Source: an uncultured Gammaproteobacteria bacterium (GTDB lineage Bacteria; Patescibacteriota; Patescibacteriia; UBA9934; CAZDDW01). Taken from it: a stretch of 64,000 nt of DNA. The stretch lies in assembly GCA_964504365.1 (NCBI GenBank), contig CAZDDW010000001.1, positions 132,293-196,292 of the forward strand, given 5' to 3'. The notes below the pieces were generated by a model. It made no database searches and had not been told where the DNA came from. It saw only the letters and a list, made by a program, of their open reading frames with translations. Below, piece by piece: positions 3,608-50,733 of this stretch (its first letter is position 1; each line of letters begins with the position of its first letter). Position numbers and translations under genes: made by a program.

Positions 3608-6022
3608 ATGAATATTTTAGCTTCTTACAATTGGGTCAAAGATTATCTTAATACAAAGGATACGATTGCTCAGTTTGATAAAAAAATGAGTTTAACTGGT
3701 TCTAGTGTTGAATATATTCATCGCGGGAAAGATCAGTTTGAAAAAATGGTTGTTGGACTGGTTAAAGAACTTAAGGACCACCCAGATGCCAATGCTCTTA
3801 AGGTTTGTGTGACTGATATCGGAAAAGAAGAGGTTGAGATTGTTTGTGGTGGTACGAATTTACGCGAAGGCATGAAAGTGTTTGTGGCTTTGCCAGGGTC
3901 TAAGGTCCGTTGGCACGGTGAAGGTGATTTAGTTGAGCTTGGAAAAACTAAGGTTCGCGGCGTGGAAAGTCATGGAATGATATGTGCGCCAAGTGAAGTT
4001 GGTTTTATTAAATTACAACAAGGTGAGAAAGATATTTGGGATTTGAGCGAACTGACTAAAGCCAAGTCAGGCACGTCTGTGGTCACTGCTTTGGATCTGA
4101 ACGATACAATTTTTGATATCGAGGCAACAACCAATCGTCCTGATCAGATGAGTATTATTGGTCTGGCTCGTGAAGGTGGTGCTGTTGGTTTGGGTGAATT
4201 TAAGTGGAATCGTGGTGCGGCTAAGAAACGAGTTGGTAGTAAGCTCGAGGTTGCTGGCGAAGAGTTGCCACTTAAGGTTTCAGTCAAGGACAAAGATTTG
4301 TGTCGACGATATCAAGCGATTGTTATCGATGGTGTTAAGGTTGGTCCATCACCTTGGTGGTTGCAGAAACGATTGCTTCAGGCCGGACATCGTCCGTACA
4401 ATAATATTGTTGACATTACTAACTACGTGTTACATGAGCATGGTCAACCAATGCATACTTTTGATTATGAGAAACTTGAAGGTGGTGAGATTGTTGTACG
4501 CAAAGCCAAGAAGGGCGAGAAGTTTTTAGCACTTGATGAGAGCGAGCATAAGTTGAGCGATAAGCATTTGGTTATTGCTGATAGTTCTCGACCAGTGGCT
4601 GTGGCCGGTGTCATGGGTGGAATGGAAACAGGGACAACTGATAAGACAACAACGATCGTATTTGAGTGCGCTAGTTTTGAGCCAGTTAATGTTCGTCGTA
4701 CTGCCCGTGATTTAAATCTGTATTCCGACTCGCAGCTTTTATTTGAAAAAGGATTGTCAACCGAAGCAACTGAGCCAGCATTAATGCGAGCGATTGAATT
4801 GACTTTGGAGATTGCGGGCGGTCGAGTTGCTTCTCAAGTGTTTGACGAGCGTTCGTCTGAGTACAAGCCATTGCAATTTCCATTTGATCCAAAGAAGGCT
4901 TCGGAGTTAATCGGAGTTGGTATCCCAGAAGTCCAGCAAATGTCAATTTTGGGGAACCTTGGTTTTACTGCCAAGAAAACCGGTGATCATTATATGGTTA
5001 CTGTGCCTTATTGGCGTGATCATGATGTTGAAGCTTCGGTTGATTTTACTGAGGAGATAGCTCGTGTGTACGGATATCACAATATGCCTTCGAAGCTGCC
5101 AAGCGGAGAACTGCCAACCGAAGCTTGGTTGCCAGAATTTGTTTGGGATCGTCGAGTGAAACAGGTTTTGGCCGGCGCTGGTGCAACAGAGACTTTTAGT
5201 GAGACCTTTGTTTCTGAGGATGATCTTGCACGCTATGGTCTGTCAGCAAGCAATGCTTTGCATCTGAAGAATCCACTCTCTAGTGATCTGGAATATTTGC
5301 GACCAAACTTGATTATTTCCATGCTGCGTTCAATCGAAGCTAACCAGCGTGAATTTTCTGAAGCGACTCTATTCGAGTTGGCTCGAACCTTTGTTCCAAA
5401 GAAAGGGAAGTTACCAGACGAAGCGCCGCGATTGTTGCTTGCGGCTTACGGACCTGACGGTGAGCAATCTTTCTTGCGAGTCAAGGGTCTGGTAGAGCGC
5501 TTGTTCCGCGAGGCTGGAGTTCATGGTCAATCTTTAGATAGGGGAACAGAAGATTCGCGTTGGCACACAACTCGCTCAGCCACGATTTCGATTAATGAAA
5601 AACCGATCGGTGTGATCGGGGAGATTTCTCGTGCCACAGCTGAGGTATTTGGTCTTGAAGCAAAGGTTGCTTTGGTTGATTTGGATTTTGCAGCTCTGTT
5701 GCCACATCTGTCGATCAATAAGCAGTACACCGCAACTCCAGATTTTCCAGCAGTCAAACGTGACCTGGCTTTTGTTCTCGATAATTCAGTTGAATATTAT
5801 CAGGTCGAGTCAGTAATTCACGAGATCGATCCTATGATTCGTCGAGTTGAGTTGTTTGATGTTTACTCAGGTAAAGGAGTTGAAGAAGGGAAAAAGAGCT
5901 TGGCTGTGCACTTAGAATTCCGAGCAGATGATCGGACCTTGAAGTCAGAGGAGGTTGATAAAGCAGTGGATGAGATTATCCAGATGCTAAAGAAGCAATT
6001 TTCTGCTACAATAAGAGGGTAA
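3608..6022 (+). CDS. pheT: phenylalanine--tRNA ligase beta subunit
   Basis: 804 aa; tRNA-binding N-term, B3/4, B5, FDX-ACB domains recognisable; adjacent to pheS. Confidence 0.9.
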   Translation: MNILASYNWVKDYLNTKDTIAQFDKKMSLTGSSVEYIHRGKDQFEKMVVGLVKELKDHPDANALKVCVTDIGKEEVEIVCGGTNLREGMKVFVALPGSKVRWHGEGDLVELGKTKVRGVESHGMICAPSEVGFIKLQQGEKDIWDLSELTKAKSGTSVVTALDLNDTIFDIEATTNRPDQMSIIGLAREGGAVGLGEFKWNRGAAKKRVGSKLEVAGEELPLKVSVKDKDLCRRYQAIVIDGVKVGPSPWWLQKRLLQAGHRPYNNIVDITNYVLHEHGQPMHTFDYEKLEGGEIVVRKAKKGEKFLALDESEHKLSDKHLVIADSSRPVAVAGVMGGMETGTTDKTTTIVFECASFEPVNVRRTARDLNLYSDSQLLFEKGLSTEATEPALMRAIELTLEIAGGRVASQVFDERSSEYKPLQFPFDPKKASELIGVGIPEVQQMSILGNLGFTAKKTGDHYMVTVPYWRDHDVEASVDFTEEIARVYGYHNMPSKLPSGELPTEAWLPEFVWDRRVKQVLAGAGATETFSETFVSEDDLARYGLSASNALHLKNPLSSDLEYLRPNLIISMLRSIEANQREFSEATLFELARTFVPKKGKLPDEAPRLLLAAYGPDGEQSFLRVKGLVERLFREAGVHGQSLDRGTEDSRWHTTRSATISINEKPIGVIGEISRATAEVFGLEAKVALVDLDFAALLPHLSINKQYTATPDFPAVKRDLAFVLDNSVEYYQVESVIHEIDPMIRRVELFDVYSGKGVEEGKKSLAVHLEFRADDRTLKSEEVDKAVDEIIQMLKKQFSATIRG

Positions 6023-6023
6023 G

Positions 6024-6103
6024 AAGTTGTCTAGTATACTGGTTATTTAGTTATCTAGTTTTCGCAACCAGACAACCAGACAACTAGTTAACTAGAAAAC
6101 AAT
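6024..6103. repeat. palindromic element with aaccagacaaccagacaac units after pheT
   Basis: ttgtctagtatactggttatttagttatctagtt ... aaccagacaaccagacaactagttaactag. Confidence 0.55.
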
Positions 6104-6460: not shown

Positions 6461-9400
6461 ATGAGCTCAGAATTTGTCCATCTACATAATCACAGTCACT
6501 ACTCATTGCTTGGTGCGCTCCCGAAAATCGGGCAGATTTTAGATCAGGTCAAAGAACAGGGTGGTGATGCTGTGGCTTTGACAGACAACGGGGCCATGTA
6601 CGGAATTATTGAATTTTACAAAAAAGCCAAGAAAATGGATATCAAGCCGATTGTTGGTATGGATGCCTACATCGCTCCACATGGTCGGCTTCAGAAACGG
6701 GCCAAGGTGGATGCCAAACCATATCGATTGGTTTTGCTTGCTGAGAATAATATTGGATACAAAAATTTGTTAAAGCTCTCAAGTATTGGATTTCTTGAGG
6801 GTTTTTATTATAGACCACGAATTGATAAGGAGATTTTGAAAGAACACTCGGAAGGGCTAATTGCTTTGTCTGCCGGAGCTTTTGGCGAGATTCCTTCATT
6901 GGTTCGTGATTATGGTAAGGATAAGGCACGTGAAGCATTGGACGAGTATCTAGAGATTTTTGATCGTGATCATTTTTATATTGAACTGGTTGATCGTCCT
7001 GAGATTCCAGAACAAGAATCAACCAATGCTATTTTGATCGAACTAGCTAAAGAAACCAACACACAACTTGTTGCTTGTAAGGATTCGTTTTATTTGCACC
7101 CTGAAGATTCTCAGGCTTGGAAGATTTTACAGTGTGTGCGTGGCGGCAAGACATTAGAAGACCATGAGCGCATGAATCAGTTTGATTACGATGCATCACT
7201 GGTTGCTCCAGAAACCATGATCGAGCGTTTCAAGGATGTGCCCGAGGCGATTGCTAACACTCGCAAGATTGCTGATCGCTGCAACGTTGAGATCGAGCTT
7301 GGGGTCTGGCACTTTCCGCCAGTTGATATTCCTGAAGGCGAAACCGCAGACTCGTTGTTGCGTAAGCAGACTTATGAGTTGGCTGGTGAGAAATATGATG
7401 AACCCTTGTCGGATGTGGTTAAAGAACGCATCGATTATGAGTTGGATATTATTAAGTTGAAAGAATACTCGGGTTATTTTATTTCTGTTGCTGATTACAC
7501 AAAGTGGGCGCGTGATAATGCGGTTGTTACCACGACCCGAGGTTCAGCTGCTGGTTCGATCGTTTCATATATTATTGGTATTTCTTCGATCGACCCATTG
7601 GAATATCAGCTACCGTTTGAGCGTTTCTTAAACCCGGAACGTCCTTCAGCGCCTGATGTTGATGCTGACTTTGCTGATAACCAACGCGACCGAGTTTTGA
7701 AATATGTGTCTGAGAAGTACGGTCAGGATCGAGTGGCTCAGATCTGCACCTTTGGAACCATGCTTGCCAGAGGTTCGGTTCGTGATGTTGGTAGAGCATT
7801 GGGTTTTGAATACAGTTTTATTGACCAGATCGCCAAAGAGATTCCAATGGGAGCTCAAGGTATGCCAATGACTTTGAAGCGAGCTTTGGATGAAAATCCG
7901 GATTTGAAAAAAATGTATGACGGTGATGGTCGTGTGCGTCAAGTGATTGATACAGCTATGCAGATCGAAGGTTGTGCTCGCCACGTTTCGGTTCATGCTG
8001 CTGGGGTGGTTATTTCTCCAGGGCCTTTAACAGACTACACTCCGCTTCAGATTGATACCCGCGAGGGTAAGGTGATTACTCAATATGAGATGCACGCAGT
8101 AGAAGATGCTGGGTTAGTTAAGATGGACTTTTTAGGAATTCGTAATTTGTCGATTCTTGGAGATGCAATCAAGATCGTTAGTAAAACAAAAGGTGTAGAT
8201 GTGGATATAGAAAATATTCCAGTTGATGATAAAACAACCTTTGATCTTTTAGCCAAGGGGCACACCATGGGCGTGTTCCAACTCTCTGGTGATGGTATGA
8301 CCAAGTATCTAGTCGAGCTCAAGCCAACTCGAGTAGAGGACATTATGGCTATGGTGGCTTTGTATCGCCCAGGTCCTATCGAGTTCATTCCTGAATATAT
8401 CAAGCGCAAACATAATCCAGAACTAATCGATTATCCGCACGAGCTGCTTGAAGATATTTTGAAAAAATCACTTGGTCTTTTGATCTATCAAGATGACGTC
8501 ATGCTTACTGCGATCAAACTAGCTGGATATTCTTGGCTTGAAGCGGATTTATTTAGAAAGGCCATGGGAAAGAAAATTCCGGAGTTGATGCTTGAACAAG
8601 AAAAGAAGTTCAAGGATGGTTGTGTTGCAAAAAATATTCCCAAGGCCTTGGCTAATGATCTTTGGGAGCGGATTAAACCGTTTGCTATGTATGCCTTCAA
8701 CAAGTCGCACGCTTCTTCGTACGGAATGGTTGCTTACCAGACTGCGTATATGAAGGCCAATTATCCGGCCGAATACATGGCTTCGTTGATGACAGCCGAG
8801 TCTGCGGATCTGGAAAAGGTGGCTGCAGCTGTGCACGAGTGTGGGCGCATGGGGATCAAGGTCTTGCCGCCGGACATTAATGAGTCATTGAAGACCTTTA
8901 CTTATATTGATGATCAGACAATTCGCTTTGGATTATTAGTGATTAAGAATTTGGGTTCTGAAGTGATTGAATCAATGATCGAGGAACGTAAGGTTAATGG
9001 ACCTTTTGTTGATCTGGCTGACTTTGCTGGACGTATTTCACACAGAGCGTTTAACAAGAAGTCTTTAGAAGCAATGATCAAGGCAGGGGCTTTGGATCGT
9101 TTTGGAAACCGGAACATGTTGCTTCAGAACGCTGATCAGATTTTAAATTATAATCGTGAAACGATTCGTGAAAAAGAACAGAACCAGACTTCATTGTTTG
9201 ATTTGGCTCCTGACTTAGAGCAGAGCAAGCTGCGTTTGAAAGAATATCCGCGCGCACCAAAGCAGGAGTATCTTGGTTGGGAAAAAGAGTTTCTTGGATT
9301 GTATATTACGAATCACCCATATGCAGATCAGGCCAAGGTTCTTGAGGGGCATGTGATAACTTGCGATCAGGTCGAGGATCAGAAAGTGAACAAATTTGTC

Positions 9401-9997
9401 CGCGTTGCCGGGATGATTGCCACGGCCAAGAAGATTGTTACTAAGAAGGGTGATGACATGGCCTTTGTTACATTGCAGGACATGGTTGAGTCAACTGAAC
9501 TAATAATCTTCCCACGGACTTTTAAAGAGTTCGAGCACTTGCTTGAAGATGGGAATACGATATTGGTATCAGCAAAAGTAAATGAGCGTGAAGGTGAAAA
9601 GAGCTTGATTGCTAATAGTGTTATTCAGTTGACTGATGAGGGGATAGAGGATGTGGCCGAGATGCTCAAGAGCGGTCTTTGGATAACTGATGATAAGCCA
9701 GCGGGATCACCCCCTTCATCCTCGTCACCTCCGACACCTTCGCAACCATCGCCACCCCCTGAACCAACTACAACCGGCGGCATTTCAGTAAGACTTCGCG
9801 GAAAGCCCTCGCAAGAGATGGTCGCTGAGCTGCGTGATATATTTCAGTCCTGTCCAGGCAGAGAGCGAGTTTACTTCCTGATTGAATCTGGTGGCAACTT
9901 TCGTAAAATAGAAACTGACTATATGGTCGACAAGACCCCGAATTTGATAGGGGCCTTACGCAACATCGTCGGCCGCGAGAATGTGGAGGTTAATTAG
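6461..9997 (+). CDS. dnaE: DNA polymerase III alpha subunit
   Basis: 1178 aa; PHP domain N-term (HLHNHSHYSLL), polymerase core, OB fold; Pro/Ser-rich linker near C-terminus. Confidence 0.9.
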   Translation: MSSEFVHLHNHSHYSLLGALPKIGQILDQVKEQGGDAVALTDNGAMYGIIEFYKKAKKMDIKPIVGMDAYIAPHGRLQKRAKVDAKPYRLVLLAENNIGYKNLLKLSSIGFLEGFYYRPRIDKEILKEHSEGLIALSAGAFGEIPSLVRDYGKDKAREALDEYLEIFDRDHFYIELVDRPEIPEQESTNAILIELAKETNTQLVACKDSFYLHPEDSQAWKILQCVRGGKTLEDHERMNQFDYDASLVAPETMIERFKDVPEAIANTRKIADRCNVEIELGVWHFPPVDIPEGETADSLLRKQTYELAGEKYDEPLSDVVKERIDYELDIIKLKEYSGYFISVADYTKWARDNAVVTTTRGSAAGSIVSYIIGISSIDPLEYQLPFERFLNPERPSAPDVDADFADNQRDRVLKYVSEKYGQDRVAQICTFGTMLARGSVRDVGRALGFEYSFIDQIAKEIPMGAQGMPMTLKRALDENPDLKKMYDGDGRVRQVIDTAMQIEGCARHVSVHAAGVVISPGPLTDYTPLQIDTREGKVITQYEMHAVEDAGLVKMDFLGIRNLSILGDAIKIVSKTKGVDVDIENIPVDDKTTFDLLAKGHTMGVFQLSGDGMTKYLVELKPTRVEDIMAMVALYRPGPIEFIPEYIKRKHNPELIDYPHELLEDILKKSLGLLIYQDDVMLTAIKLAGYSWLEADLFRKAMGKKIPELMLEQEKKFKDGCVAKNIPKALANDLWERIKPFAMYAFNKSHASSYGMVAYQTAYMKANYPAEYMASLMTAESADLEKVAAAVHECGRMGIKVLPPDINESLKTFTYIDDQTIRFGLLVIKNLGSEVIESMIEERKVNGPFVDLADFAGRISHRAFNKKSLEAMIKAGALDRFGNRNMLLQNADQILNYNRETIREKEQNQTSLFDLAPDLEQSKLRLKEYPRAPKQEYLGWEKEFLGLYITNHPYADQAKVLEGHVITCDQVEDQKVNKFVRVAGMIATAKKIVTKKGDDMAFVTLQDMVESTELIIFPRTFKEFEHLLEDGNTILVSAKVNEREGEKSLIANSVIQLTDEGIEDVAEMLKSGLWITDDKPAGSPPSSSSPPTPSQPSPPPEPTTTGGISVRLRGKPSQEMVAELRDIFQSCPGRERVYFLIESGGNFRKIETDYMVDKTPNLIGALRNIVGRENVEVN

Positions 9998-10067
9998 ACT
10001 CCCCCTCCTTTCAAAGGAGGGGTTAGGGGTGGTTCTGATTACAAAGTAGTTTCGATACAATTATACC

Positions 10068-10115
10068 CAGAACCCCCCTTAAGTCCCCCCTTGGAGAAGG
10101 GGGGAGAGCAAAATT
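10068..10115. repeat. 48-bp conserved element CAGAACCCCCCTT-N5-CCCCCCTTGGAGAAGGGGGGAGAG-CAAAATT (copy 1 of 2)
   Basis: about 43/48 identical to 31715-31761; C6-loop-G6 hairpin; upstream GGGGTGGTTCTG (10026-10037) complementary to CAGAACCCCCC. Confidence 0.7.
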
Positions 10116-11273: not shown

Positions 11274-12656
11274 ATGACGCCAACAGCTAAAAAATCGACG
11301 TCAAAAAAGAAGCCTGCTGCTAAACAGCCACCAAAGAGGAAAACTCCGGCTAAGAAAAAAGCACCAGCCAAAAAGGTTGCTCCGAAAAAGAAGCCTGCGC
11401 CAAAGAAAAAAACACAGGCTGCAAAGGATGCAGAGATTCTTGAGGTATTGGAGGAGATTTATGAAGAGCCGGAAGAGGAACCAAAGAACAAAAAAACCAA
11501 AAAACTAAAGAACAAGGCACCGGTTTCACCATCAATGAAGATGTATCGCAGGATTGCTATTGGGTTTATCGCTGTGACTTTGTTTTTGTTAGCCACGGTA
11601 ATTATTTTGTCGACCATTCGGGCCACGGTTACTGTTTATTCGTCGGTCACAACAATGAACACAGAATTTATTGCAGATGTGGTTGCTGAAACACAAATGG
11701 AAGGTGAGATTCCAGGGCGAGTGATTGATACAACGATTGATGAGACACGAGAGTTTGTTGTTGATGAAGAAGGGGCAAGCGCGGTTCCAGCCAAAGCCGG
11801 AGGCTTGGTAACCATTTATAATACTTCGAATCGATCTCAACCATTGGTCGCTACAACACGACTTATGACCCCGGACGGGATTTTGTTTCGTATCGATTCT
11901 GGTGTGACTGTACCAGCCCAAGGAACTGTAGAAACTATGGCTCATGCTGATGAAGAGGGTGCGGCTGGTGAGATTGAACCAACAACGTTTAGTATTCCAG
12001 GTTTGAACTCGACTAGGCAAAAGGAAGTTTACGCCGAGAGCTTTGAGCCAATGACTGGTGGGGTTGAGTATCACAAGATTGTTACAGAAGAAGATTTGCA
12101 AGCGGCACGTAATCAGTTAAGTATGGATTTGTTGGCCGTGGCTGAGGAAGATTTACGAGCCGAGGTTCCAGACACTTATACAGGTGAAACATTTTTTGAA
12201 GAGGTCATTGGTGAAGTGGTTAGTGTTAGCGCTGGAGATGAGGCTGATAGTTATAGTATTTCAATGAGTGTGCATGTGATCGGAGTATTTTATGACCAAG
12301 CTCCGTTGTTAACTATTGCTGAAGCTAAATTATACGAAGGTTTGGAAAAGGGTTATCAGTTGTTCATGGTTGATCGAGAGGGTATGGCGGTTGAGGTTGA
12401 ACGGTATGATTTGGAGCATGAGATTGCCAATGTGCGCGTCGTTCTTGAAGGGCTCACAATGGTTTCGCCAACTAACGCGTTGCTTGATAAAACAAATTTG
12501 GTTGGATTACCAGCACAAGATTTAAAGGACATGCTGATCGATGCTGGAATAGCGGTTGGGGTTGATGTTGAGTTTTTCCCATTCTGGATACGAAAAGTAC
12601 CTAAGCTGCGTGATCACGTTGAGATCAAGATTCAAACACCTGATCCAGCACTATAG
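11274..12656 (+). CDS. membrane protein with histone-H1-like Lys/Ala/Pro-rich N-terminal tail and large extracytoplasmic domain
   Basis: KKPAAKQPPKRK... repeats, single TM at about aa 95-115; AAGGAGG RBS; TATTAT -10 upstream. Confidence 0.55.
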   Translation: MTPTAKKSTSKKKPAAKQPPKRKTPAKKKAPAKKVAPKKKPAPKKKTQAAKDAEILEVLEEIYEEPEEEPKNKKTKKLKNKAPVSPSMKMYRRIAIGFIAVTLFLLATVIILSTIRATVTVYSSVTTMNTEFIADVVAETQMEGEIPGRVIDTTIDETREFVVDEEGASAVPAKAGGLVTIYNTSNRSQPLVATTRLMTPDGILFRIDSGVTVPAQGTVETMAHADEEGAAGEIEPTTFSIPGLNSTRQKEVYAESFEPMTGGVEYHKIVTEEDLQAARNQLSMDLLAVAEEDLRAEVPDTYTGETFFEEVIGEVVSVSAGDEADSYSISMSVHVIGVFYDQAPLLTIAEAKLYEGLEKGYQLFMVDREGMAVEVERYDLEHEIANVRVVLEGLTMVSPTNALLDKTNLVGLPAQDLKDMLIDAGIAVGVDVEFFPFWIRKVPKLRDHVEIKIQTPDPAL

Positions 12657-12720: not shown

Positions 12721-13136
12721 TTGACATGGGTCTGATACGTGATATCATATTTGTACCTGCAGTGACAGGGAACACGTCTGTTTGAGACGAACTTATAGAG
12801 ACTTTGAACCATGGCTGAGAGTTCAGAGAGTGACGTCAAACAAGATACCACCCCTGGGGGCACTGCTACACAATACCGTATTTGGTCTAAATCCCAGAAA
12901 TTCGGTCTATTCCTTCAAAAATTTTTTCGTCAATGCTACGGCATTGCCTTAAAAATTGTTTGAATGAATATCCTCGAATTTCAGGTGTTTATCCTCAAAA
13001 GAGTATTGTGGAGCAGCGCCAAGAGCAGCGTTTGGTCGAGCGTGATCGGCTGTAAGTAAGAGGTTCGCTTTGGAGACAACTAGGCGAACAATTCGGGTGG
13101 AACCGTCGAGCTTAGCTCGATCCCGAAACTTCACCA
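12721..13136 (+). promoter_or_regulatory. thrS leader with TTGACA promoter and T-box-like riboswitch (candidate Thr ACC specifier)
   Basis: AATTCGGGTGGAACCGTCG at about 13078-13096 matches the T-box consensus AAUUAGGGUGGNACCGCG; AGAGAG/UGA motifs and an ACC-A candidate specifier upstream; 480-nt untranslated gap before thrS. Confidence 0.5.
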
Positions 13137-14945
13137 ATGAGTGAAGTTTTTTGTTTAATAACAGAACCTATGTCTAAAGATGAGAATAATAAATTAGAAG
13201 CCATGCGTCATTCCTGTGAGCATGTGCTAACTATGGCCATGTTGCGTTTGTGGCCGGGAAAAGTAAAGGCAGCCATGGGACCGGCCACAGAGGAAGGTTT
13301 TTATTTTGATTTTGACTCAGATGAAAAAATTTCTGAGGATGATTTTGAAACAATTGAAAAAGAAATGGCCAAAATAATAAAAGAGGATTTGCCAATTATT
13401 AAAGATGAGATGACTGTGCAAGAGGCTCGAGATTTTTTTAATAGCAATACTTATAAAGGAAATGAATATAAACACGAGTGGATTGATGATATCGAGGCTC
13501 GTGGTGACAAGGTTGCGGTTTATTGGATGGGAGAAAAGGGTAAGGACATCCCCGAGACTTTTGTGGACATTTGTTCTGGTCCACACGTGGATTCAACCGG
13601 GCAGATCGGACCATTCAAGTTATTAAACATTGCGGGGGCCTATTGGCATGGTGATGAAAAAAACAAAATGTTAACCCGTATTTATGGTACAACTTTTGAG
13701 ACCCAACAGGAACTAGATGAATATTTGAAGATGTTAGAGGAGGCCAGGAAACGCGATCACCGTAAGATCGGTAAGGAATTGGACCTGTTTTGTTTTTCTG
13801 ATTTAGTTGGTCCAGGTTTACCCCTGTTTACCCCAAAAGGAACCGCAGTTCGTAATGCTATTGCTGATTTATTGAATCGCCTAAAAGAAGAAAAGGGATA
13901 TGAACAGGTTGATATTCCACATTTGGCTAAATGTGATTTGTATAAAACATCAGGGCATTGGGACAAGTTTAAAGATGATATCTTTCATGTAAAAGGTAAG
14001 TCTGAAGAGTTTGTCTTGAAACCAATGAACTGTCCACATCATACTCAGATCTATGCTTGCCAGCCGCGTAGCTATCGAGATTTGCCATTAAGATACGCTG
14101 AGATCACTAAGCAGTATCGTGATGAGCAAACCGGAGAACTGCACGGTCTTTCACGTGTCCGCTCGATCAGTATTGATGATACTCATGTCTTTTGTCGCCC
14201 AGATCAAATACTTGAAGAAGCCAAAGGTGCTTACGATATTATTTTTTCGTTTTACAAGGTATTTGGCATGGAATTGGAAGTCCACTTGTCAGTTCGTGAC
14301 TCAAAAGATCATTCAAAGTATCTTGGAACTGATGAGATTTGGGACAAAGCTGAAGAGAATTTAAAACAGTTATTAAAGCAAGAAAAATGTGAGTATGAAT
14401 TGGATGAGGGGGAAGCGGCTTTTTACGGTCCAAAACTTGATTTCGTTGGACGAGATTCGATTGGACGAACTTGGCAGCTAGCAACGATTCAGTTAGATTT
14501 CAACATGCCAGATCGTTTTGGTCTTGAGTATGCTGATGCAGAAGGTGGTCAGGCCCAGCCTGTAATGTTGCATATAGCGATTGCTGGATCATTGGAACGG
14601 TTTTTGTCAGTTATCCTGGAACATTTTGCAGGGGTGCTCCCGCTGTGGTTGGCGCCAGTGCAGTTGCGATTAATCAGCGTCGGAGAGGGTCATGTTGGGT
14701 TTGCTAATGAGTTGGCTGGCGAGCTGAAAGTAGCTGGTGTTCGAGCCGAGGTTGATTCAAGTGACGAAACAGTGGGGAATAAGATTCGCAAGAGTGCTAA
14801 GGACAAGATACCGTGGACAATCGTTCTTGGTGATAAAGAAGTCTCTGGTGAACCGTTTAAGATACGGGTGTTTGGACAAGAAGATGAATTAGTTCTGAAA
14901 CGGGATGAGCTGGCAGATAAGATAAAAGAACAAGAGGTGGTTTGA
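13137..14945 (+). CDS. thrS: threonine--tRNA ligase
   Basis: 602 aa; class II core and anticodon-binding domain; HxxxH editing-domain remnants. Confidence 0.9.
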   Translation: MSEVFCLITEPMSKDENNKLEAMRHSCEHVLTMAMLRLWPGKVKAAMGPATEEGFYFDFDSDEKISEDDFETIEKEMAKIIKEDLPIIKDEMTVQEARDFFNSNTYKGNEYKHEWIDDIEARGDKVAVYWMGEKGKDIPETFVDICSGPHVDSTGQIGPFKLLNIAGAYWHGDEKNKMLTRIYGTTFETQQELDEYLKMLEEARKRDHRKIGKELDLFCFSDLVGPGLPLFTPKGTAVRNAIADLLNRLKEEKGYEQVDIPHLAKCDLYKTSGHWDKFKDDIFHVKGKSEEFVLKPMNCPHHTQIYACQPRSYRDLPLRYAEITKQYRDEQTGELHGLSRVRSISIDDTHVFCRPDQILEEAKGAYDIIFSFYKVFGMELEVHLSVRDSKDHSKYLGTDEIWDKAEENLKQLLKQEKCEYELDEGEAAFYGPKLDFVGRDSIGRTWQLATIQLDFNMPDRFGLEYADAEGGQAQPVMLHIAIAGSLERFLSVILEHFAGVLPLWLAPVQLRLISVGEGHVGFANELAGELKVAGVRAEVDSSDETVGNKIRKSAKDKIPWTIVLGDKEVSGEPFKIRVFGQEDELVLKRDELADKIKEQEVV

Positions 14946-16291
14946 TTATGACCAAAGGAAAGTTTCACATTATCACTTTTGGCTGCCAGATGAATAAGAA
15001 CGATTCTGAGCGAATTGCTGGGTTGCTTGAGCAAGTTGGTATGGTCTCGACTGATCAGGTTGAGGAGGCTGATTTGGTGCTCCTGAACAGCTGTAGTGTG
15101 CGCCAGACAGCTGAAGATCGGATTTTTGGTAGAGTTAAGCAGTTGGCCAAGTTGCGTCGCAAGCGACCAAATTTGATTATTGGTGTGACTGGCTGCATGG
15201 CTGGGCGAGACAAGGACGGTTCACTAAAACGCAAGTTGCCTGACGTTGATTTATTTTTTCCAACCATCGAGGCGACACAGTTGCCACGTTGGGTTGCTGA
15301 GTTGAATCCAGACCTTATTCATGATCCAGAGTGTGACAATGAGTTTTTTGATATCCAGCCGATTCACAACTCTGACTTTCAGGCTTTTGTTCCGATTCAG
15401 ACTGGGTGCAACAATTTTTGTTCTTACTGTGTTGTGCCGTATGCGCGTGGGCTGCAGAAGAATCGTCCAGCAAAGCAGATCTTAGATGAGGTACGCAAGT
15501 TGGCTGAGAAGGGGTGTGTAGAAATTAGTTTGCTTGGGCAGGCAGTGAATACGTTTGAAGCTTCAGATTCGGAAGTGTTTAGCAAAGACAATCCGTATAA
15601 AGATCACTTTGCAGCTTTGCTTTGGGAAATCAACCAGATCGATGGGGTAGAGCGAATTTTTTATACTGCACCGTATCCAAAGGATATGACTGATGATGTT
15701 ATTGATGCGCTAGCTCTTCCGAAAATGTTTAACTACCTTCATATCCCAGTTCAGTCAGGTGACAATGAGGTGTTGCGTCGGATGAATCGCAAGTACGATC
15801 GTGAAGAGTATTTAGAAATTATCGATCGGATCAAGAAGCGGGTTCCTGAGATTGCTTTGGGAACAGACATTATCGTTGGTTTTTGCGGTGAGACTGAAGA
15901 GGAGTTTCAGAATACAGTGGATTTGTATCGCCAAGTGGAGTTTGATATTTCATACACGGCCATGTATTCAACCAGATCTGGGACTGTGGCTGCGAAGAAG
16001 TTTAAGGACAATGTCTCACGGGAAGAAAAAAAGCGCCGTTGGCGCATTTTGCATGAGCTGATGGAAGAGATTGTTTTGAAGAAGAATCAGAAGTTTGTTG
16101 GGCAAAAGGTTTCAGTCTTAGTTGAAAAATGTGAGCATGGTGTTTGTACAGGGAATTCACGAGAAATGAAAGTAGTTCAGTTTAAGGGTGATTCGAAGTT
16201 TGTTGGGCAGATTGTAGAAGTCGAAATTGAGCGAGCACAGGAATGGGTGCTGTTTGGTAAAGAAAATCCCTCGCCGCTCCTGCGGAGCTAA
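14942..16291 (+). CDS. miaB: tRNA-i6A37 methylthiotransferase
   Basis: MTTase N-domain Cys triad, radical-SAM CxxxCxxC (CSYCVVPY), TRAM domain. Confidence 0.85.
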   Translation: MIMTKGKFHIITFGCQMNKNDSERIAGLLEQVGMVSTDQVEEADLVLLNSCSVRQTAEDRIFGRVKQLAKLRRKRPNLIIGVTGCMAGRDKDGSLKRKLPDVDLFFPTIEATQLPRWVAELNPDLIHDPECDNEFFDIQPIHNSDFQAFVPIQTGCNNFCSYCVVPYARGLQKNRPAKQILDEVRKLAEKGCVEISLLGQAVNTFEASDSEVFSKDNPYKDHFAALLWEINQIDGVERIFYTAPYPKDMTDDVIDALALPKMFNYLHIPVQSGDNEVLRRMNRKYDREEYLEIIDRIKKRVPEIALGTDIIVGFCGETEEEFQNTVDLYRQVEFDISYTAMYSTRSGTVAAKKFKDNVSREEKKRRWRILHELMEEIVLKKNQKFVGQKVSVLVEKCEHGVCTGNSREMKVVQFKGDSKFVGQIVEVEIERAQEWVLFGKENPSPLLRS

Positions 16292-16310
16292 GAGGGACAG
16301 GTCCGACCGG

Positions 16311-17078
16311 TTAGTCCGGTCGGTGGAGCTCGGAGCGCATCATCCGGAAGCCAGTGTGAGTGGCTGTGTCTAGTCGGTAGGAGCGAGTGACATGAAGTCG
16401 CTCGCTAACGCTGGAAACGGGCCGTCTTGAGCCTTGACGACGACGGGAATGGTCGCTGTGTGCGTTGCGCATATGGTCCTCGACCACACGAGCACGCCAG
16501 GCCGTGGCCACACGCATGCAGGTTTCCATGTCGATATCGTCTTCGCGGTACATCAGTTCTGCCAACGGACCACCGTTGTGCAGATTGGTGATCAGCCACT
16601 CGAAGCAGGCTGGGTCGTGCAGATAGCGGCGATTGCGTTCTTCGAGAATGATCCCGATTGCTTCAGCAATCTCTGGGTGTATCTGCTTGCGACGGAAGGT
16701 GCCTTCCTTGAAGCGATAGCTCAGGCGATCCATCTTGATACGGATTGCCCGCATCACTCGCTTGTGGTGAGTATCCTGAACTCGCTGTCGAAGACCAAGC
16801 ATGGTAGCTTCGACTTGCGAGTCACGCGGCGTGTGGATGTTCAGCCAGTCGCTGTGGCGGTATTTCCGCCGCAGATCACCGGAGCGCCCTCGTTTTGACA
16901 CCCACAGGGTGCGTACGGTTCGCTCTTCTGTCAGCGGTAGTTTGCCCAGCGTCTGAGCCAGGGCAGCTGGATCTGCTTCTCGGACAAAGTCCAGGGAAAG
17001 AACTGGGAAGGTTTGTTCCGCGACCCGCACCTCGTGGCGCGGACCGAGATCGGCCAGTGCCTCGATTGCGGGACTCAT
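16311..17078 (-). CDS. hypothetical basic protein; GC-rich insert
   Basis: ORF track 16311-17228; probable start ATG 17078 after AAGGAGG; Arg-rich; overlapped by many spurious opposite-frame ORFs typical of high GC. Confidence 0.4.
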   Translation of the reverse strand: MSPAIEALADLGPRHEVRVAEQTFPVLSLDFVREADPAALAQTLGKLPLTEERTVRTLWVSKRGRSGDLRRKYRHSDWLNIHTPRDSQVEATMLGLRQRVQDTHHKRVMRAIRIKMDRLSYRFKEGTFRRKQIHPEIAEAIGIILEERNRRYLHDPACFEWLITNLHNGGPLAELMYREDDIDMETCMRVATAWRARVVEDHMRNAHSDHSRRRQGSRRPVSSVSERLHVTRSYRLDTATHTGFRMMRSELHRPD

Positions 17079-17153
17079 CACTACCTCCTTGATTTGCATC
17101 TTATCGGTTCCACGCCAGCAAGGGAAGTGGATAACTAGGAATTTTTTAAAACT

Positions 17154-18122
17154 ATGAAACCAAAAGTAATTGTCATTCTTGGTCCGACTGCGTCGGGCAA
17201 GACTTCCTTGAGTATCAAACTTGCTCAAGAGTTTTCTGGTGAAGTGATCAGTGTTGATTCACGACAGATTTATCGGGACATGAACATCGGAACCGCAAAG
17301 GAGCCCCAAGACCAGACAACCAGACAACCAGACAACCAGACAGCTGGCGAGTATCTGATCCAAGGCATCCCACATCACGGAATCGATATCCGGAATCCAA
17401 ATGAAGAGATGTCTGCAGCTGAGTTCAAGGAGTATGCAGAACAGAAAATCAAGGAAATTGTGGATCGTGGGAAAGTGCCAATTTTGGCTGGTGGTACAGG
17501 ATTTTGGATCCAGGCAATCATAGATAACCTTAAAATTCCGGCTGTTGCTCCTGATCCGACCCTGCGTCAAGTGCTTGATGGCAAGAGTACAGAGCAGTTA
17601 TTTGAGATGTATAAAGAAAAAGACCCTCAAGGAGCCAAGACGATTGATAAGGACAATCGGTTGCGCTTGATACGAGCCGTAGAGGTTTGTATCAAGTCTG
17701 GTCAGCCATTTTCTGAACAGCAGCAAAAAGGTGAACCAAAGTATGATGTATTGCAGATTGGGATTGATGTAGATCGCAAAGAGTTGTACAACAGAATTGA
17801 TCAACGCGTAGGTCAGATGATCGAGCAGGGTCTTGTTGAAGAGGTAAAACAGATTCGAGAAAAGTATGGTTGTGTCTCACTAGCTCTGACCGGAATCGGC
17901 TACCGTCAGATTTGCGAGTATCTGGACCAGGTTCAGGAACCCTCCTTCGCCAAGGCTTCGGAGGGTGACCTTCTCGCGCAAGCCGTGGAGAAGGTCAAAA
18001 AAGACACACGACATTATGCCAAGCGTCAGTTGAGTTGGTTTCGCCGTGATAAACGGATCAAGTGGGTCAAGGGGTATGAGGAAGCAGAGGATTTGGTTAG
18101 GCGATTCTTGAATGACCAATGA
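17154..18122 (+). CDS. miaA: tRNA dimethylallyltransferase
   Basis: GPTASGKT P-loop; contains in-frame (ACCAGACA)x4 repeat expansion at 17318-17345 encoding QTTRQPDNQT; last codons and stop lie in a palindromic repeat element. Confidence 0.85.
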   Translation: MKPKVIVILGPTASGKTSLSIKLAQEFSGEVISVDSRQIYRDMNIGTAKEPQDQTTRQPDNQTAGEYLIQGIPHHGIDIRNPNEEMSAAEFKEYAEQKIKEIVDRGKVPILAGGTGFWIQAIIDNLKIPAVAPDPTLRQVLDGKSTEQLFEMYKEKDPQGAKTIDKDNRLRLIRAVEVCIKSGQPFSEQQQKGEPKYDVLQIGIDVDRKELYNRIDQRVGQMIEQGLVEEVKQIREKYGCVSLALTGIGYRQICEYLDQVQEPSFAKASEGDLLAQAVEKVKKDTRHYAKRQLSWFRRDKRIKWVKGYEEAEDLVRRFLNDQ

Positions 18123-18235
18123 TCAATAACCAATGAACAAGATAATAATCAATAACCGAATAACCTAATTCGATTATTAGATTATTCTATCATTATTTCG
18201 ATCATTGGAATTTGGTTATTGGTTATTTTTGTATT
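18115..18235. repeat. palindromic AATAACC-unit intergenic element (MITE/REP-like), homolog of 58448-58560
   Basis: left arm (g)atcaataaccaatgaacaagataat..., right arm ...gatcattggaatttggttattggttatt; shares caagataat, gatcattgg and aataacc blocks with the eno-gpmI element. Confidence 0.6.
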
Positions 18236-18264
18236 GAAAAAGCCCCGGACCAGATGGTCCGGGG
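18233..18264 (-). terminator. intrinsic terminator (minus strand)
   Basis: ccccggaccagatggtccgggg hairpin with T-run on the minus strand. Confidence 0.55.
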
Positions 18265-18284
18265 ACTTGCGTTCTAGGGAAAGG

Positions 18285-18932
18285 TCAGATATCCAGGGCC
18301 CTGAGGTTGGTCTCGATCAGACGTCGGATATCGTGGTAAGTTTCCAGATCGTACTCAACCTGGAGGGCTGGGAAGAACATATCCGGACGCAGATGGTGCA
18401 GCAGCTGCTTGACGATCTGGTCCGGGGGTAGGGTCTTGTTGACCTTTTGACACCCCTCGAGTCCGAGACCAGAGTGGCCGCGGCCGAGCAGGATGTGGAA
18501 GCTGTCCAGGGCAGTGCCACTGACGTTGTTGGCCACGAAAACACGCGGCAGCTGGTGTCGCTTGCTGGGCAGATCAGCCCCATGCAGATCACAGCCAAGG
18601 ATGTGGACTGTATCGACCCTTCCATGGTAGCAGAAGCCTCTGGCCTGACTGATCCGAACATCCCCCATCAAGCAGCCAATGAACTCGGCCTCCTCGATGT
18701 CGCTCTGGCTCAGATCCATGCCCCGGAGGTCACAGGCAAAGAAGCTGCCGCTCAGCTTGACACCACGCAGATCGAATCCACGTAGATCCTGCCCACCGAA
18801 ATATTGGACCGCTGCCAACCGAGGATGGCCGCATTCCTGGCAGACCGGATCTTCGGTCCCGTCCACGAAGAGCTGCAGACGTCGGCAGCGCTCGTTCTGA
18901 CAAACCACGAACCAACTATTATACTCGCTCAA
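18285..18932 (-). CDS. pentapeptide-repeat protein with N-terminal CxxC...CxxC zinc ribbon; GC-rich insert
   Basis: DLRGFDLRGVKLSG...DLRGMDLSQSDI pentapeptide repeats. Confidence 0.5.
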   Translation of the reverse strand: MSEYNSWFVVCQNERCRRLQLFVDGTEDPVCQECGHPRLAAVQYFGGQDLRGFDLRGVKLSGSFFACDLRGMDLSQSDIEEAEFIGCLMGDVRISQARGFCYHGRVDTVHILGCDLHGADLPSKRHQLPRVFVANNVSGTALDSFHILLGRGHSGLGLEGCQKVNKTLPPDQIVKQLLHHLRPDMFFPALQVEYDLETYHDIRRLIETNLRALDI

Positions 18933-19073
18933 AACACCGCTCCTCTCAAAAGAGGTAAAGAACTAAGAGCAGGGGAATTCCTGCTCACCCTTGAAAACAA
19001 GAGCTTAATATAGCATAAAAATAAGGATCCGTCAACCCCTAAAGTGAGTTATTTGACTAAAAAAGCACCATTT

Positions 19074-19586
19074 TCAGGTGCTTTCGTGTGTTGAGCTTGG
19101 GAGGTGCTCGCGAAGGCGTTCGACCAGCTCGCGACAGTGATTGACAGCTGTTTCTAGCTGAGTGCTGTATGGCTGGGTTTCACGTTGACGCTCGAACTGT
19201 AGTAGGCAACATTCGAAGCTGTATAGGTACATGGCCACAGCTTCATCGTGCGAGATTGGCTCTTCCACCCGGCGTGGTTTGAGACGGGCCAAGCGCAGCG
19301 GGATTCGGACCAGTAGGCGATGGGATCGATATCGCCGCATGCGACGCTTGCTCGTCCGATGGTCTTGTAAGCTTGATTGGTGGATGTCTTGCACCGCACG
19401 CAAAACAATGGTTTCCAGTTGTTCGACTGGGAAGCGCCACTGCCCAGCAATCCGGTGTGGATTGAGCAGATCAGCTACTTCCTGTCTGGGTGTCAGAGTC
19501 GGCGGCGATGAGCTACCGAGCTCGGAATGCCCACCAGCCAGGCGCCCAGCCAATCCTCCGAGTGCAGATGTTGCGCGGAAAATCAT
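19074..19586 (-). CDS. hypothetical protein; GC-rich insert
   Basis: ORF with minus-strand terminator 19056-19083 downstream. Confidence 0.35.
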   Translation of the reverse strand: MIFRATSALGGLAGRLAGGHSELGSSSPPTLTPRQEVADLLNPHRIAGQWRFPVEQLETIVLRAVQDIHQSSLQDHRTSKRRMRRYRSHRLLVRIPLRLARLKPRRVEEPISHDEAVAMYLYSFECCLLQFERQRETQPYSTQLETAVNHCRELVERLREHLPSSTHEST

Positions 19587-19655
19587 ATGCCTCTCCTGTT
19601 TGGGTTGAAGGATCGAGGAAGTAGGTTAGCATGGACCAGGCTTGTTGTCAACCTA

Positions 19656-19690: not shown

Positions 19691-21199
19691 TTTTAGCTTG
19701 ACCCCTAAAATGTTTTTTACCACCCCGGGATCGGCGTTGCCTTCGGTTTCTTTGATTACCATACCGATGAAGAATTTGAGTAGTTGCTCTTCACCGGCTT
19801 TGAAGCGAGCTGCTTCATCTGGGTGATTAGCTATTACTCGATCAACCGCGTCAGCGATAACAGATTCATCCTCAAGTCGTCCCAGTTTTTTATCTTCCAT
19901 AACATGCGATGGATCGATTCCACTGTTAACCATTTCCTCAAGTACAGTCATACCATTCTTGCTCGATAATTTGCCAGTGGCTAATAAAGTGATCAGTTCA
20001 GCAAAGTTCTCAGGAGTGATTTTTAAGATTCGGATGTCAATTGCTTGAGCCTTCATGATTCCACCCAGCTTTGACAACAACCAACCACCAACCAGCTTAG
20101 CAATTTTCAATCGATCTTTCTCGCTCGGTTCCTCAGCATCAGGCTGAGAGCGCAACCAGGCATCCAGCTCAGAAAACACATGTTCAGTATAATCAGCCAA
20201 AGCAGGGTCATCACAGATCTGTTTGGCATCGGCTTGGCTTAATAAATACTCATCAACAAAACGACGACGGCGTGATTCTGGTAGCTCAGGAATTCGACCC
20301 TTGGCTTCTTCAGTAATCTCAGTCAGGTCAAGCATCGGAATATCAGGCTCAGGGAAGTAGCGATAGTCAGCCGCACCTTCTTTGGTCCGTTGCAGCTCTG
20401 TTACCTGCTTGCTTTCGTTCCAACCACGTGTCTCCTCAACCTTTGGTGGTTCACCTGCCTCCCATAATTTAGTCTGCCGCTGAATCTCGTGTTCCAAAGC
20501 TCGTTCAACAGCTTTGAACGAGTTTAAGTTCTTGACTTCAATTTTTGTATTCAGCTCTTTGCTCTTTGGTCTGCCTTCGTCATCCAGTTCACGCAGACTA
20601 ATGTTTGCATCACAGCGCAAGTGGCCTTTTTCCATGTCCGCGTCAGAAATCTCTAAGTAACGAGCAATTAAACGCAGTTCCTGCAAAAAAGCCTTGGCCT
20701 CACCTGGTGTACGAATATCTGGTTCAGAAACAATTTCAGCCAGCGGTGTGCCACCACGATTATAATCAACATAGGTCTTGCCAGAAGGGTCGTGAATATT
20801 CTTGGCAGCATCTTCTTCAAGGTGTAAGCGGGTAATTCCAACGCGCACACTCTGCCGTGGTGCGTTTGGAATATGTATATCCAAGTAGCCATCCTGCATA
20901 ACCGGCATATCAAACTGTGAGATCTGATATCCTTTTGGCAGGTCAGGGTAGAAGTAGTTTTTACGATCAAATTTTGAAGCCGTGGCGATTGTTCCGTTCA
21001 AAGCCAGTCCGGCCAGAACACCCCAACTAACAGCCTGTTCGTTGGGTACAGGCAAGGTTCCGGGGTGACCCAAACAAACCGGACACACATTAGTGTTCGG
21101 TGCTTTGGCACTGTTGTGTGTGGCACAGCCACAAAACATTTTGGATTTGGTTTTCAATTGGACATGTATTTCAAGTCCGATGATCGGTTCTAGATTCAT
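19688..21199 (-). CDS. gatB: Asp-tRNA(Asn)/Glu-tRNA(Gln) amidotransferase subunit B
   Basis: 503 aa; GatB N-terminal catalytic and C-terminal YqeY-like domain motifs. Confidence 0.9.
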   Translation of the reverse strand: MNLEPIIGLEIHVQLKTKSKMFCGCATHNSAKAPNTNVCPVCLGHPGTLPVPNEQAVSWGVLAGLALNGTIATASKFDRKNYFYPDLPKGYQISQFDMPVMQDGYLDIHIPNAPRQSVRVGITRLHLEEDAAKNIHDPSGKTYVDYNRGGTPLAEIVSEPDIRTPGEAKAFLQELRLIARYLEISDADMEKGHLRCDANISLRELDDEGRPKSKELNTKIEVKNLNSFKAVERALEHEIQRQTKLWEAGEPPKVEETRGWNESKQVTELQRTKEGAADYRYFPEPDIPMLDLTEITEEAKGRIPELPESRRRRFVDEYLLSQADAKQICDDPALADYTEHVFSELDAWLRSQPDAEEPSEKDRLKIAKLVGGWLLSKLGGIMKAQAIDIRILKITPENFAELITLLATGKLSSKNGMTVLEEMVNSGIDPSHVMEDKKLGRLEDESVIADAVDRVIANHPDEAARFKAGEEQLLKFFIGMVIKETEGNADPGVVKNILGVKLK

Positions 21200-40211: not shown

Positions 40212-40252
40212 TCCATCACAGAACACGATCATGATCATGTGCTCTGATGGGG
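40212..40252. repeat. array palindromic repeat R2
   Basis: tccatcacagaacacgat-catg-atcatgtgctctgatgggg. Confidence 0.8.
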
Positions 40253-42864: not shown

Positions 42865-42904
42865 CCCATCACAGAACATGATTTAGATCATGTGCTCTGA
42901 TGGG
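42865..42904. repeat. array palindromic repeat R7 (downstream slot about 310 bp without ORF; contains relic ctgatggg fragments)
   Basis: cccatcacagaacatgat-ttag-atcatgtgctctgatgggg. Confidence 0.8.
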
Positions 42905-50722: not shown

Positions 50723-50733
50723 ATGTCTTCACT

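Follow-up and report, generated by a model that had tools for sequence, protein, structure and literature searches.

The window analysed here, a stretch of 64,000 nucleotides (nt) of contig CAZDDW010000001.1 (assembly GCA_964504365.1, positions 132,293 to 196,292 of the forward strand), contains four quasi-palindromic elements, designated E1 to E4, in gene spacers, and a perfect tandem repeat inside the tRNA modification gene miaA. The DNA belongs to a genome of Candidatus Uhrbacteria (Patescibacteria): the closest named relatives of the MiaA protein of the window (17154-18122) are MiaA proteins of Uhrbacteria, and six metagenomic contigs carry a protein identical to it. Nucleotides 15654-19622, a span that covers both the miaA repeat and E1, are base-for-base the same in two contigs assembled independently from other samples; therefore neither the repeat nor E1 is an assembly artefact, which the initial annotation had named as grounds for doubting the repeat. 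The elements and the genes that they adjoin are as follows.

6020-6022: stop codon of pheT; E3 occupies the full spacer from here to the ATG (6104) of an open reading frame (ORF) for a small membrane protein
6023-6103, unstranded: E3, with 4.5 octamers RGTTNTCT per arm; arms 6026-6060 and 6066-6100 (35 nt, 74% complementary, 5-nt loop)
17154-18122, + strand: miaA (tRNA dimethylallyltransferase, 322 amino acids), the last three codons and TGA of which are inside E1
17311-17342, + strand: perfect tandem repeat (ACCAGACA)x4 in miaA, delimited by Tandem Repeats Finder (TRF)
18111-18227, unstranded: E1, a 117-nt AT-rich imperfect palindrome; arms 18111-18149 and 18189-18227 (39 nt, 74% complementary, pairing continues inward)
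18237-18268, unstranded: GC-rich terminator-like hairpin aaaaagccccggacc-agat-ggtccggggactt
50634-50715, unstranded: E4, with the same architecture as E3; arms 50637-50672 and 50678-50713 (36 nt, 78% complementary, 5-nt loop)
57195-58463, + strand: eno (enolase, 422 amino acids), the last three codons and TAA of which are inside E2
58452-58562, unstranded: E2, a 111-nt homologue of E1 in inverted orientation; arms 58446-58493 and 58521-58568 (48 nt, 73% complementary, pairing continues inward)
58564-60141, + strand: gpmI, with its true start at ATG 58564

Upstream of E1 is miaA, and after it come the terminator hairpin and an oppositely transcribed pentapeptide-repeat gene; rpmE (- strand) and queA (+ strand) diverge from either side of E4; and E2 fills the spacer between eno and gpmI.

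All four elements had been described as short direct repeats mirrored by their complements, and a hairpin scan recovered every one of them: E1-E4 are four of the top five hairpins in the window, and zero such hairpins were found in shuffled sequence with a stricter hairpin scoring. Their folding z-scores relative to shuffles are about -4.4 to -7.4, and their G+C content is 25-38%. The arms of E3 and E4 consist of 4.4-4.5 units of 8 nt and those of E1 and E2 of ~5-6 units of 7 nt; TRF reports period-8 arrays in the former and period 7 or 8 in the latter. The units of E1 are AATGACC, AATGATC and AATAACC, mirrored by GGTTATT. E1 and E2 pair nearly to the centre, with innermost loops of ~4-6 nt, and their termini are the inverted repeats AATRACCAATRAYCAA ... 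TTGGTTATTGGTTATT. Two of the unit sequences are over-represented in the window: ACCAGACA, with 11 matches (2.0 +/- 1.4 expected), and AATAACC, with 19 matches (7.1 +/- 2.3 expected).

E1 and E2 are separated by 40 kb, yet E1 and the reverse complement of E2 are identical at 101 of 131 positions (77%), with long identical runs, and the alignment score is 67 in inverted orientation compared to 43 in direct orientation and 7 +/- 3 for shuffles. The deviant units occur in the same order in both, which indicates copying rather than convergence. Judged from this alignment, E1 and E2 are copies of one element of ~115 nt in opposite orientations, and the homology of the elements after miaA and eno that was suspected initially is upheld. 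The grouping of all four elements as one family is not: alignments of E1/E2 with E3/E4 score no higher than shuffles, the AACC-type arm of heptamers leads in E1/E2, and the GGTT-type arm of octamers leads in E3/E4. A further palindrome of the same genome, ~5 kb past the end of the window (L224 6763-6831), has 32-nt arms that are not periodic and lies in a long spacer downstream of a lexA-like gene; its centre (...GTT + 5 nt + AACCAAAT...) matches that of E3 and E4.

The spacers that hold these elements were compared with those of relatives that have about 85% (82-86%) nucleotide identity to the window. In L003, miaA ends ...TTT CTT AAA TAA and is followed directly by the same G+C-rich terminator hairpin; E1 is absent, and the hairpin (18237-18268), which is outside E1, represents the 3′ boundary that this spacer had ancestrally. 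The gap between eno and gpmI is 1 nt in L089 (a 9.7-kb contig syntenic with 49140-59100 of the window), L090 and L091 (independent assemblies), all of which lack E2. E4 is also absent from L089, where the rpmE-queA spacer is 56 nt as opposed to 139 nt in the window. Conversely, L089 has a 119-nt element of its own (L089a, unit TACGAAAN) in the gap from prfA to the conserved terminator of rpmE, a position that is empty in the window. At each of the four polymorphic sites the element is either complete or missing, and no intermediate lengths were seen.

The homology of E1 and E2 and the four clean polymorphisms together support a reading in which the elements have been copied between loci. Our preferred interpretation, to which we give about even credence, is that E1/E2 and E3/E4 represent two families of small non-coding, non-autonomous palindromic repeats (77-117 nt). 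This Uhrbacteria lineage would have acquired the elements since its divergence from the relatives of ~85% identity, by copying into very short spacers at gene boundaries, with arms of ~4-6 degenerate units of 7-8 nt.

The initial annotation proposed that the last residues and stop codons of miaA and eno come from the elements, and alignment with orthologues bears this out. The genes end AAT GAC CAA TGA and AAT AAC CAA TAA, respectively, within E1 and E2, which share the starting sequence AAT RAC CAA TRA. Orthologous MiaA proteins end in FL followed by K or V (...FLK*), compared to ...FLNDQ in the window, and all close orthologues of Eno end in EIEEEL plus zero to three residues, as EEEL(S)* in the relatives of ~85% identity, compared to EIEEEINNQ. 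The orthologues stop two to three residues sooner, without repeat DNA; because these element-free proteins end earlier, the final three residues and the stop codons of MiaA and Eno are derived from the elements. At the protein level the effect is minor, a trivial exchange of one to three C-terminal residues plus the stop for N-D/N-Q-stop. At the other end of E2, the TTG at 58540 that would give gpmI an N-terminal extension MIIDHWSF falls inside the element, and the start of related proteins aligns with ATG 58564; the extension is spurious, as had been supposed. E1 ends with stop codons in all three frames within 21 nt. An AT-rich element with stops in all frames would do almost no harm where an ORF terminates or immediately ahead of a start codon, and in RNA the element might fold out as a hairpin, rejoining the upstream stop and the downstream start.

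The presence of the elements, the homology of E1 with E2, the presence/absence polymorphism and the element-derived codons are observed directly; how the elements were copied is a matter of interpretation. The initial annotation recognized a fourfold array inside miaA, but its coordinates (17318-17345) are a few bases off from those of TRF (17311-17342). The array encodes DQTTRQPDNQT and, as previously stated, constitutes an insertion between the conserved GTAKEP and PHHGID segments: the loop has 12-14 residues more than solved MiaA structures, and the GTAKEP-to-PHxGID stretch varies from 0 to about 35 residues across MiaA proteins of Uhrbacteria. Other lineages have arrays of other units in the same loop ((ATAAAAAA)x4.5 in L003 and (ACCTACA)x4.6 in L088), which have decayed to 82-96% matches. 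The array of the window is in frame as a whole, but the description of it as an in-frame expansion does not hold unit by unit: because the unit is 8 nt, only the addition of three units (24 nt) preserves the frame. Alleles of 1, 4 or 7 units are in frame upon translation, whereas alleles of 2, 3, 5 or 6 units cut MiaA to 62-88 amino acids. The one-unit version obtained by removal of three units reads EPQDQTAGEYLIQG, a length typical of the clade. From the sequence, the simplest history of the array is a single three-unit (+24-nt) tandem expansion, in which an 8-nt seed of a one-unit progenitor would have been triplicated by tandem duplication with the gain of eight residues. The miaA array may thus be a separate event of the same mutational style as the elements, in a surface loop that would tolerate any length.

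A perfect tract within an ORF, with a unit that is not a multiple of three and neighbouring alleles that truncate the protein, is also what would be expected of a contingency (phase-variation) switch, with miaA turned on and off as single units are gained or lost. This we consider highly improbable, as there are just four copies in the tract and miaA is a housekeeping tRNA modification gene. The array was said to be probably slippage-prone, but this finds no support, as a single allele is found on the six contigs: no copy-number variation was detected across three assemblies (DNA) and six contigs (protein), and the protein cluster at 90% identity has one member, so alleles of 1 or 7 units are not on record. 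A metagenome scan for alleles with other unit numbers, based on the left junction of the repeat in miaA, gave no match in a collection from which this organism is absent. The decayed arrays of other units in the same loop fit neutral insertions into a permissive loop.

Other repeats were found within genes. The queA gene of L089 (2702-2739) holds an in-frame array of nonamers, (TTGCGGGGG)x4.2, with 96% matches. In the window, an imperfect array (AACCAAAA)x4.4 at 11479-11513 encodes part of a Lys-rich low-complexity N-terminal region (EPKNKKTKKLKNK) of a 460-residue membrane protein that has no Pfam match, and the length of the region differs among relatives. A candidate for a second in-gene array in gatB (20075-20094, CAACCAC) was rejected as a chance repeat that encodes the conserved sequence LVGGWLL. 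Further along miaA (17939-17966), a small G+C-rich hairpin motif CCCTCCTTCGCCAAGGCTTCGGAGGG in frame encodes PSFAKASEG, and a matching insertion of 11 residues is present in only some orthologues (P0002, P0009 and P0010). Relatives hold further copies of the 13-mer CCTTCGCCAAGGC, one after miaA in a spacer of L085 (11036-11048) and one in L092 (7161-7173), and this looks like a second, G+C-rich dispersed motif that may sit inside genes. The minus-strand genes on either side of miaA (16311-17100 and 18285-19586) are 52-54% G+C, compared to about 44%, and have either no Pfam match or pentapeptide-repeat matches alone. In the more distant L084 and L085, miaB, miaA and gatB are adjacent and these minus-strand genes are absent; therefore, miaA of the window sits between lineage-specific insertions.

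Palindromes with periodic arms are also present in relatives of the window, but the units are different: ACGGAAAN, ATTTCAGN and GTTAANAG (twice) around rplA-rplK-nusG in L085, AATTTTC in L084, GGATTGAT in L093, and AAGAAAYW in L092 (three times, including one in the eno-gpmI spacer that is unrelated to E2). The spacers between their arms are 11-54 nt, and the arms of two pairs of elements within genomes (L085c/d and L092a/b) are near-identical. A profile search of genome contigs with MiaA, with no close relative among the matches listed (the best of these has 50% identity), provided loci that were used solely as controls. The clade of the window has 8.5 period-8 arrays per 100 kb, compared to 0.9 in other Uhrbacteria and Candidate Phyla Radiation (CPR) genomes and 0.9 in unrelated bacteria. 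For periodic-arm palindromes the figures per 100 kb are 5.4 in the clade (nine in 166 kb), zero in other Uhrbacteria/CPR (113 kb) and 0.7 in unrelated bacteria (1.24 Mb), where they are clustered: five are in one 21-kb locus of a record titled uncultured Acidobacteriota (L058 2892-13424). Four distinct units of 7-9 nt (ATTGACG twice, CTGATTC, GTTTACGC and a CACGGAT-type unit) are found in L058, with the same architecture as in the window although the phylum is unrelated.

A scan of metagenomes with AACCAGACAACCAGACAAC gave at least 120 loci, mostly unrelated coding matches or long arrays, with no copy from the organism of the window among them, and also about twenty palindromes with 8-nt periodic arms (GGTTGTCT/GGTTGTTT...AACCAGAC/AACAAAAC). 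Contigs with arms of the GGTTGTCT/GGTTGTTT type (L095, L101, L104, L105, L136, L137, L154, L155, L172, L184, L189, L196, L212 and L213) were taken as Bacteroidota-like, proteobacterial or low-G+C from a reading of ORFs and N-termini only. The loops of these palindromes are 22-59 nt, some of them resembling a sigma-70 promoter (TTGACT-17-TACAAA in L154), and an intrinsic terminator often comes after the A/C-rich arm; they could be small transcription units that encode (CAACNNNA)n RNA. In all, periodic-arm palindromes were seen in one Uhrbacteria clade, contigs assigned to Bacteroidota by ORF content only, records titled Acidobacteriota, Gastranaerophilales and Peregrinibacteria, and Geobacter (from the literature). 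Among the 225 loci fetched, the end pattern of E1/E2 was found only in copies of the same locus. A search of a plasmid collection with E1 yielded just weak Bacillus matches at chance level. A search of the available literature found no description of periodic-arm palindromes in Patescibacteria, and a literal search of the literature for element sequences gave no match.

The diversity of units by locus and relative raises the possibility that nothing moved and that each spacer expanded a local seed of 7-8 nt by slippage, acquiring its inverted arm via template switching. Such growth in place would account for E2 and L092a, which occupy the same spacer with no significant similarity, for arrays that have a single arm (those in the miaA loops and one directly before an ATG at L092 1138-1172), for the resemblance of E3 to E4, which is no greater than that of their units, and for an element of L085 with arms that flank a pre-existing terminator hairpin. 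It is hard to reconcile with two oppositely oriented elements 40 kb apart that are 77% identical and agree in the succession of their variant units, with the near-identical arms of L085c/d and L092a/b, or with four polymorphic sites that are all-or-none without intermediates. We regard it as possible but improbable.

Two promoter-like sites are located around E4.

50603-50631, - strand: rpmE promoter-like site, TTGACA-17-TACACT, just outside E4 and kept in L089
50697-50724, + strand: queA promoter-like site, TAGACA-16-TATCAT, a match to the consensus only

The -35-like TAGACA of queA is a unit of the right arm of E4 and the -10 TATCAT is in the flank; E4 separates the ancestral divergent promoters. 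As for translation, a motif like the Shine-Dalgarno sequence (GGAG, GAGG or AGGA, 4-18 nt upstream) was found for 10 of 50 long ORFs, compared to a background of 8%, and initiation in this organism appears from these counts to be largely without Shine-Dalgarno pairing. The rarity of such pairing helps to explain the tolerance of elements that abut start codons.

It may be asked whether the arrays are binding sites for DNA- or RNA-binding proteins, of the integration host factor (IHF)-HU or S1/Csp/CsrA type, that regulate the flanking genes. The regular spacing of 7-8 nt with two-fold symmetry, the -35-like hexamer that E4 contributes between divergent promoters, the bias of arm mismatches in E3 and E4 towards fixed positions of the unit, and the many elements that stop 0-12 nt short of a start codon (E2, E3, L092a/b, L085c/d and L089a) would all be consistent with this, and analogous proposals have been made, of the former type for Geobacter (PMC2700814) and of the latter for heptamer repeats ahead of start codons (PMC4679880). 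However, L085 has four unit types within 2.2 kb, and every type would require a separate protein; relatives of ~85% identity lack the elements at these genes; successive sites at 8-bp spacing would be on different faces of the DNA helix; E1 is in a 3′ untranslated region before a terminator, with no downstream gene; and RNA folding shows no strand preference. The occurrence of several unrelated units per genome and the absence of elements at the same genes in relatives argue against dedicated binding proteins, and we think this explanation unlikely.

Even less likely, in our estimation, is a role of the hairpins as functional RNA (sites of intercistronic processing or stabilization, attenuators or terminators, for example). 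The elements are in transcribed spacers within operons, they fold well compared to shuffles (z-scores -4 to -8), and comparable roles have been reported for repeats of the ERIC (enterobacterial repetitive intergenic consensus) and REP (repetitive extragenic palindromic) types. Yet RNA from the transcribed strand folds no better than its complement (sense ahead in four elements, antisense in seven), the elements are not conserved at orthologous sites, and Rfam 15 contains nothing that matches at gathering thresholds, a permissive search giving only a chance mir-9 match on E4 (E = 0.41). These three observations argue against a selected RNA. A G+C-rich stem followed by a run of T is also lacking, and the terminator of miaA is a separate hairpin. 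Identification as intrinsic terminators was rejected for E4, which contains none, and for E1, from which the G+C-rich hairpin at 18237-18268 is separate.

Among known repeats, bacterial miniature inverted-repeat transposable elements (MITEs) and the ERIC and Correia repeats are imperfect palindromes of ~80-130 bp in transcribed intergenic regions, with presence that varies between related genomes, and can supply promoter hexamers or alter gene ends. The elements of the window are similar in size, palindromy, intergenic location, presence/absence variation and the altering of gene ends, but their arms of tandem 7-8-mers are not a trait of those families. Classic MITEs have defined terminal inverted repeats that match an insertion sequence and a fixed target duplication (often TA); E1 and E2 have terminal inverted repeats but no fixed-length target duplication, and no insertion sequence with matching ends was seen, although no systematic transposase search was made. 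A REP is a short, G+C-rich palindrome whose 5′ end is conserved (GTAG type) and which has a cognate gene for a REP-associated tyrosine transposase (RAYT), and REPINs are hairpin-forming doublets of them mobilized by RAYT with no target duplication, extragenic at gene ends and lineage-specific. The elements of the window share hairpin formation, the position at gene ends and the lack of a target duplication, but at 25-38% G+C they are periodic and have no GTAG-type end. Rickettsia palindromic elements (100-150 bp, entirely inside ORFs) are in-frame insertions that add residues to proteins; the likeness is in the addition of residues, as they are longer and have no sequence relation to the elements of the window. 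Mycobacterial interspersed repetitive units (46-101 bp) occupy operon spacers and overlap the flanking stop and start codons as the elements of the window do, but are direct repeats rather than palindromes and also have no sequence relation. The short tandemly repeated repetitive sequences of cyanobacteria are intergenic heptamer repeats.

Two other systems were rejected. Integron attC sites require RYYYAAC ... GTTRRRY core sites around an imperfect palindrome that follows a promoterless cassette, whereas the ends of the elements are AATGACC.../...GGTTATT and AGTTATCT.../...AGACAACT, and their neighbours are housekeeping genes conserved both in kind and in order. TIGR arrays are periodic dual-repeat or stem-loop arrays of 36 nt beside a Tas gene with a Nop domain (PMC12045711); here the period is 7-8 nt, the palindromes are single, and the flanking genes are pheT, miaA, rpmE/queA and eno/gpmI, with no adjoining Tas gene.

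The closest description is that of paired tandem octanucleotide sites in Geobacter metallireducens (Aklujkar et al. 2009, PMC2700814), of which there are 24, 21 and 8 pairs in classes 1 to 3, on opposite strands. The sites consist of three to five tandem octa-, nona- or heptanucleotides (e.g., GTTGCTYN x4) with a variable spacer, are absent from Geobacter sulfurreducens, include one between proB and proA, and were guessed by the authors to bind a putative global regulator (IHF/HU); an element of four heptamers in the same genome occurs both inside and between genes (PMC2700814). The arms of E1-E4 are of the same build, with 4.4-4.5 units of 8 nt in E3 and E4 and ~5-6 units of 7 nt in E1 and E2, and the opposite-strand pair with its variable spacer corresponds to arm, loop and arm. 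The differences are in the phylum, the units and the number of copies (dozens in Geobacter, two per family here), and in the overlap with stop codons, which is seen for miaA and eno but not reported for Geobacter. Another precedent is the heptamer TAACTGA of marine Beggiatoaceae, Cyanobacteria and Bacteroidetes, which occurs in two to six copies, mostly intergenic and often ending a few nucleotides before a start codon with no Shine-Dalgarno sequence; the spacers of relatives are shorter without the repeats, and a few of the repeats overlap ORF ends or lie inside ORFs (PMC4679880). The TAACTGA repeats are one-armed, with a single conserved heptamer (one inverted case in 170 sets), whereas the arms here are mirrored and the unit varies. 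The elements of the window are a variant of a kind of repeat already described in bacteria but little understood, not a new system.

If the elements are repeats copied between loci, as we prefer, copying would depend on the hairpin and repeat structure and not on a specific sequence: slippage would build the arrays, template switching would build and homogenize the inverted arm, and ectopic copying would occasionally place the product elsewhere. A passage in PMC13100816 describes template switching between imperfect inverted-repeat arms as able to homogenize and extend them. We favour such structure-dependent copying over a dedicated sequence-specific transposase, and infer a selfish or neutral nature for the elements, not a regulatory one.

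Several observations weigh against this interpretation. Copies were counted within 83 kb of the genome (the window and an extension of 19 kb), where there are two per family; none of either family was found in the 19 kb beyond the window. The arms of E3 and E4 are identical at 49 of 64 positions, compared to 48.5 +/- 1.7 with permuted octamers, so no homology past the unit consensus is apparent and the two elements could have independent origins; the mismatches in their arms are mostly at two fixed positions of the unit, which random decay would not predict. Comparison of flanks with empty sites did not reveal a target-site duplication of fixed length (TTGAA for E1, TTA for E2, none for E4, TAAT for L089a), and these candidates are not separable from chance because the lengths are inconsistent and the DNA is AT-rich. 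No terminal motif common to all elements was found at the compared junctions. The polymorphisms could equally be precise deletions in relatives, and the eno-gpmI spacer of L093 weakly resembles E2 (p about 0.004, uncorrected), which is suggestive of an older element at that site. No transposase or other mobilizing enzyme was identified, although no systematic transposase search was made, and mobility is indicated by the copies and the polymorphism only. Finally, simple slippage fails to explain why the arm is nearly constant at ~4-5 units across unrelated units and phyla, and this constancy could reflect a function or a specific enzyme.

A broader conjecture, which we put forward tentatively and think unlikely, is that palindromes with arms of ~4-5 copies of an arbitrary unit of 7-8 nt constitute a distinct cross-phylum class of self-propagating DNA with one structure-directed mechanism. 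Candidate mechanisms would be a replication or repair pathway with a step of 7-8 nt, or a hairpin-specific enzyme, and its products would simply be able to survive at gene ends and in permissive loops of proteins.

Other features of the window were encountered. A match to the T-box leader below threshold (12753-13128; 49 bits, with gathering at 93; E = 8e-8, over the whole model) is just upstream of the ORF at 13137-14945, which should be threonyl-tRNA synthetase (Pfam tRNA_SAD, tRNA-synt_2b and HGTP_anticodon) according to gene order in L084 and L085. A long G+C-rich imperfect palindrome with 39-nt arms (CTCCCCCTCCTTTCAAAGGAGGGG... / ...CCCCCCTTGGAGAAGGGGGGAG) at 9999-10106, unlike the AT-rich periodic elements, directly follows the ORF at 6461-9997 (DNA polymerase III alpha subunit by synteny with L084 and L085). 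A near-perfect palindrome, CCATCACAGAACAYGAT-4 nt-ATCATGTGCTCTGATGG(G), occurs twice, 2.6 kb apart (40213-40250 and 42865-42904), within 39-43 kb, where the G+C content of the window is highest (54-59%), and may represent operator sites in an acquired island.

Patescibacteria have extremely compact genomes in which gaps of 1-10 nt between genes are frequent; therefore, elements of 80-120 nt that vary among relatives of ~85% identity are a visible source of genome change. They affect annotation by rewriting stop codons and C-terminal residues and by creating false N-terminal extensions, and possibly supply promoter hexamers. The same style of repeat lengthens surface loops of essential enzymes such as MiaA, a route to lineage-specific protein insertions. 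If the constant architecture does reflect one mechanism, it would represent an undescribed mutational or mobility pathway of bacteria.

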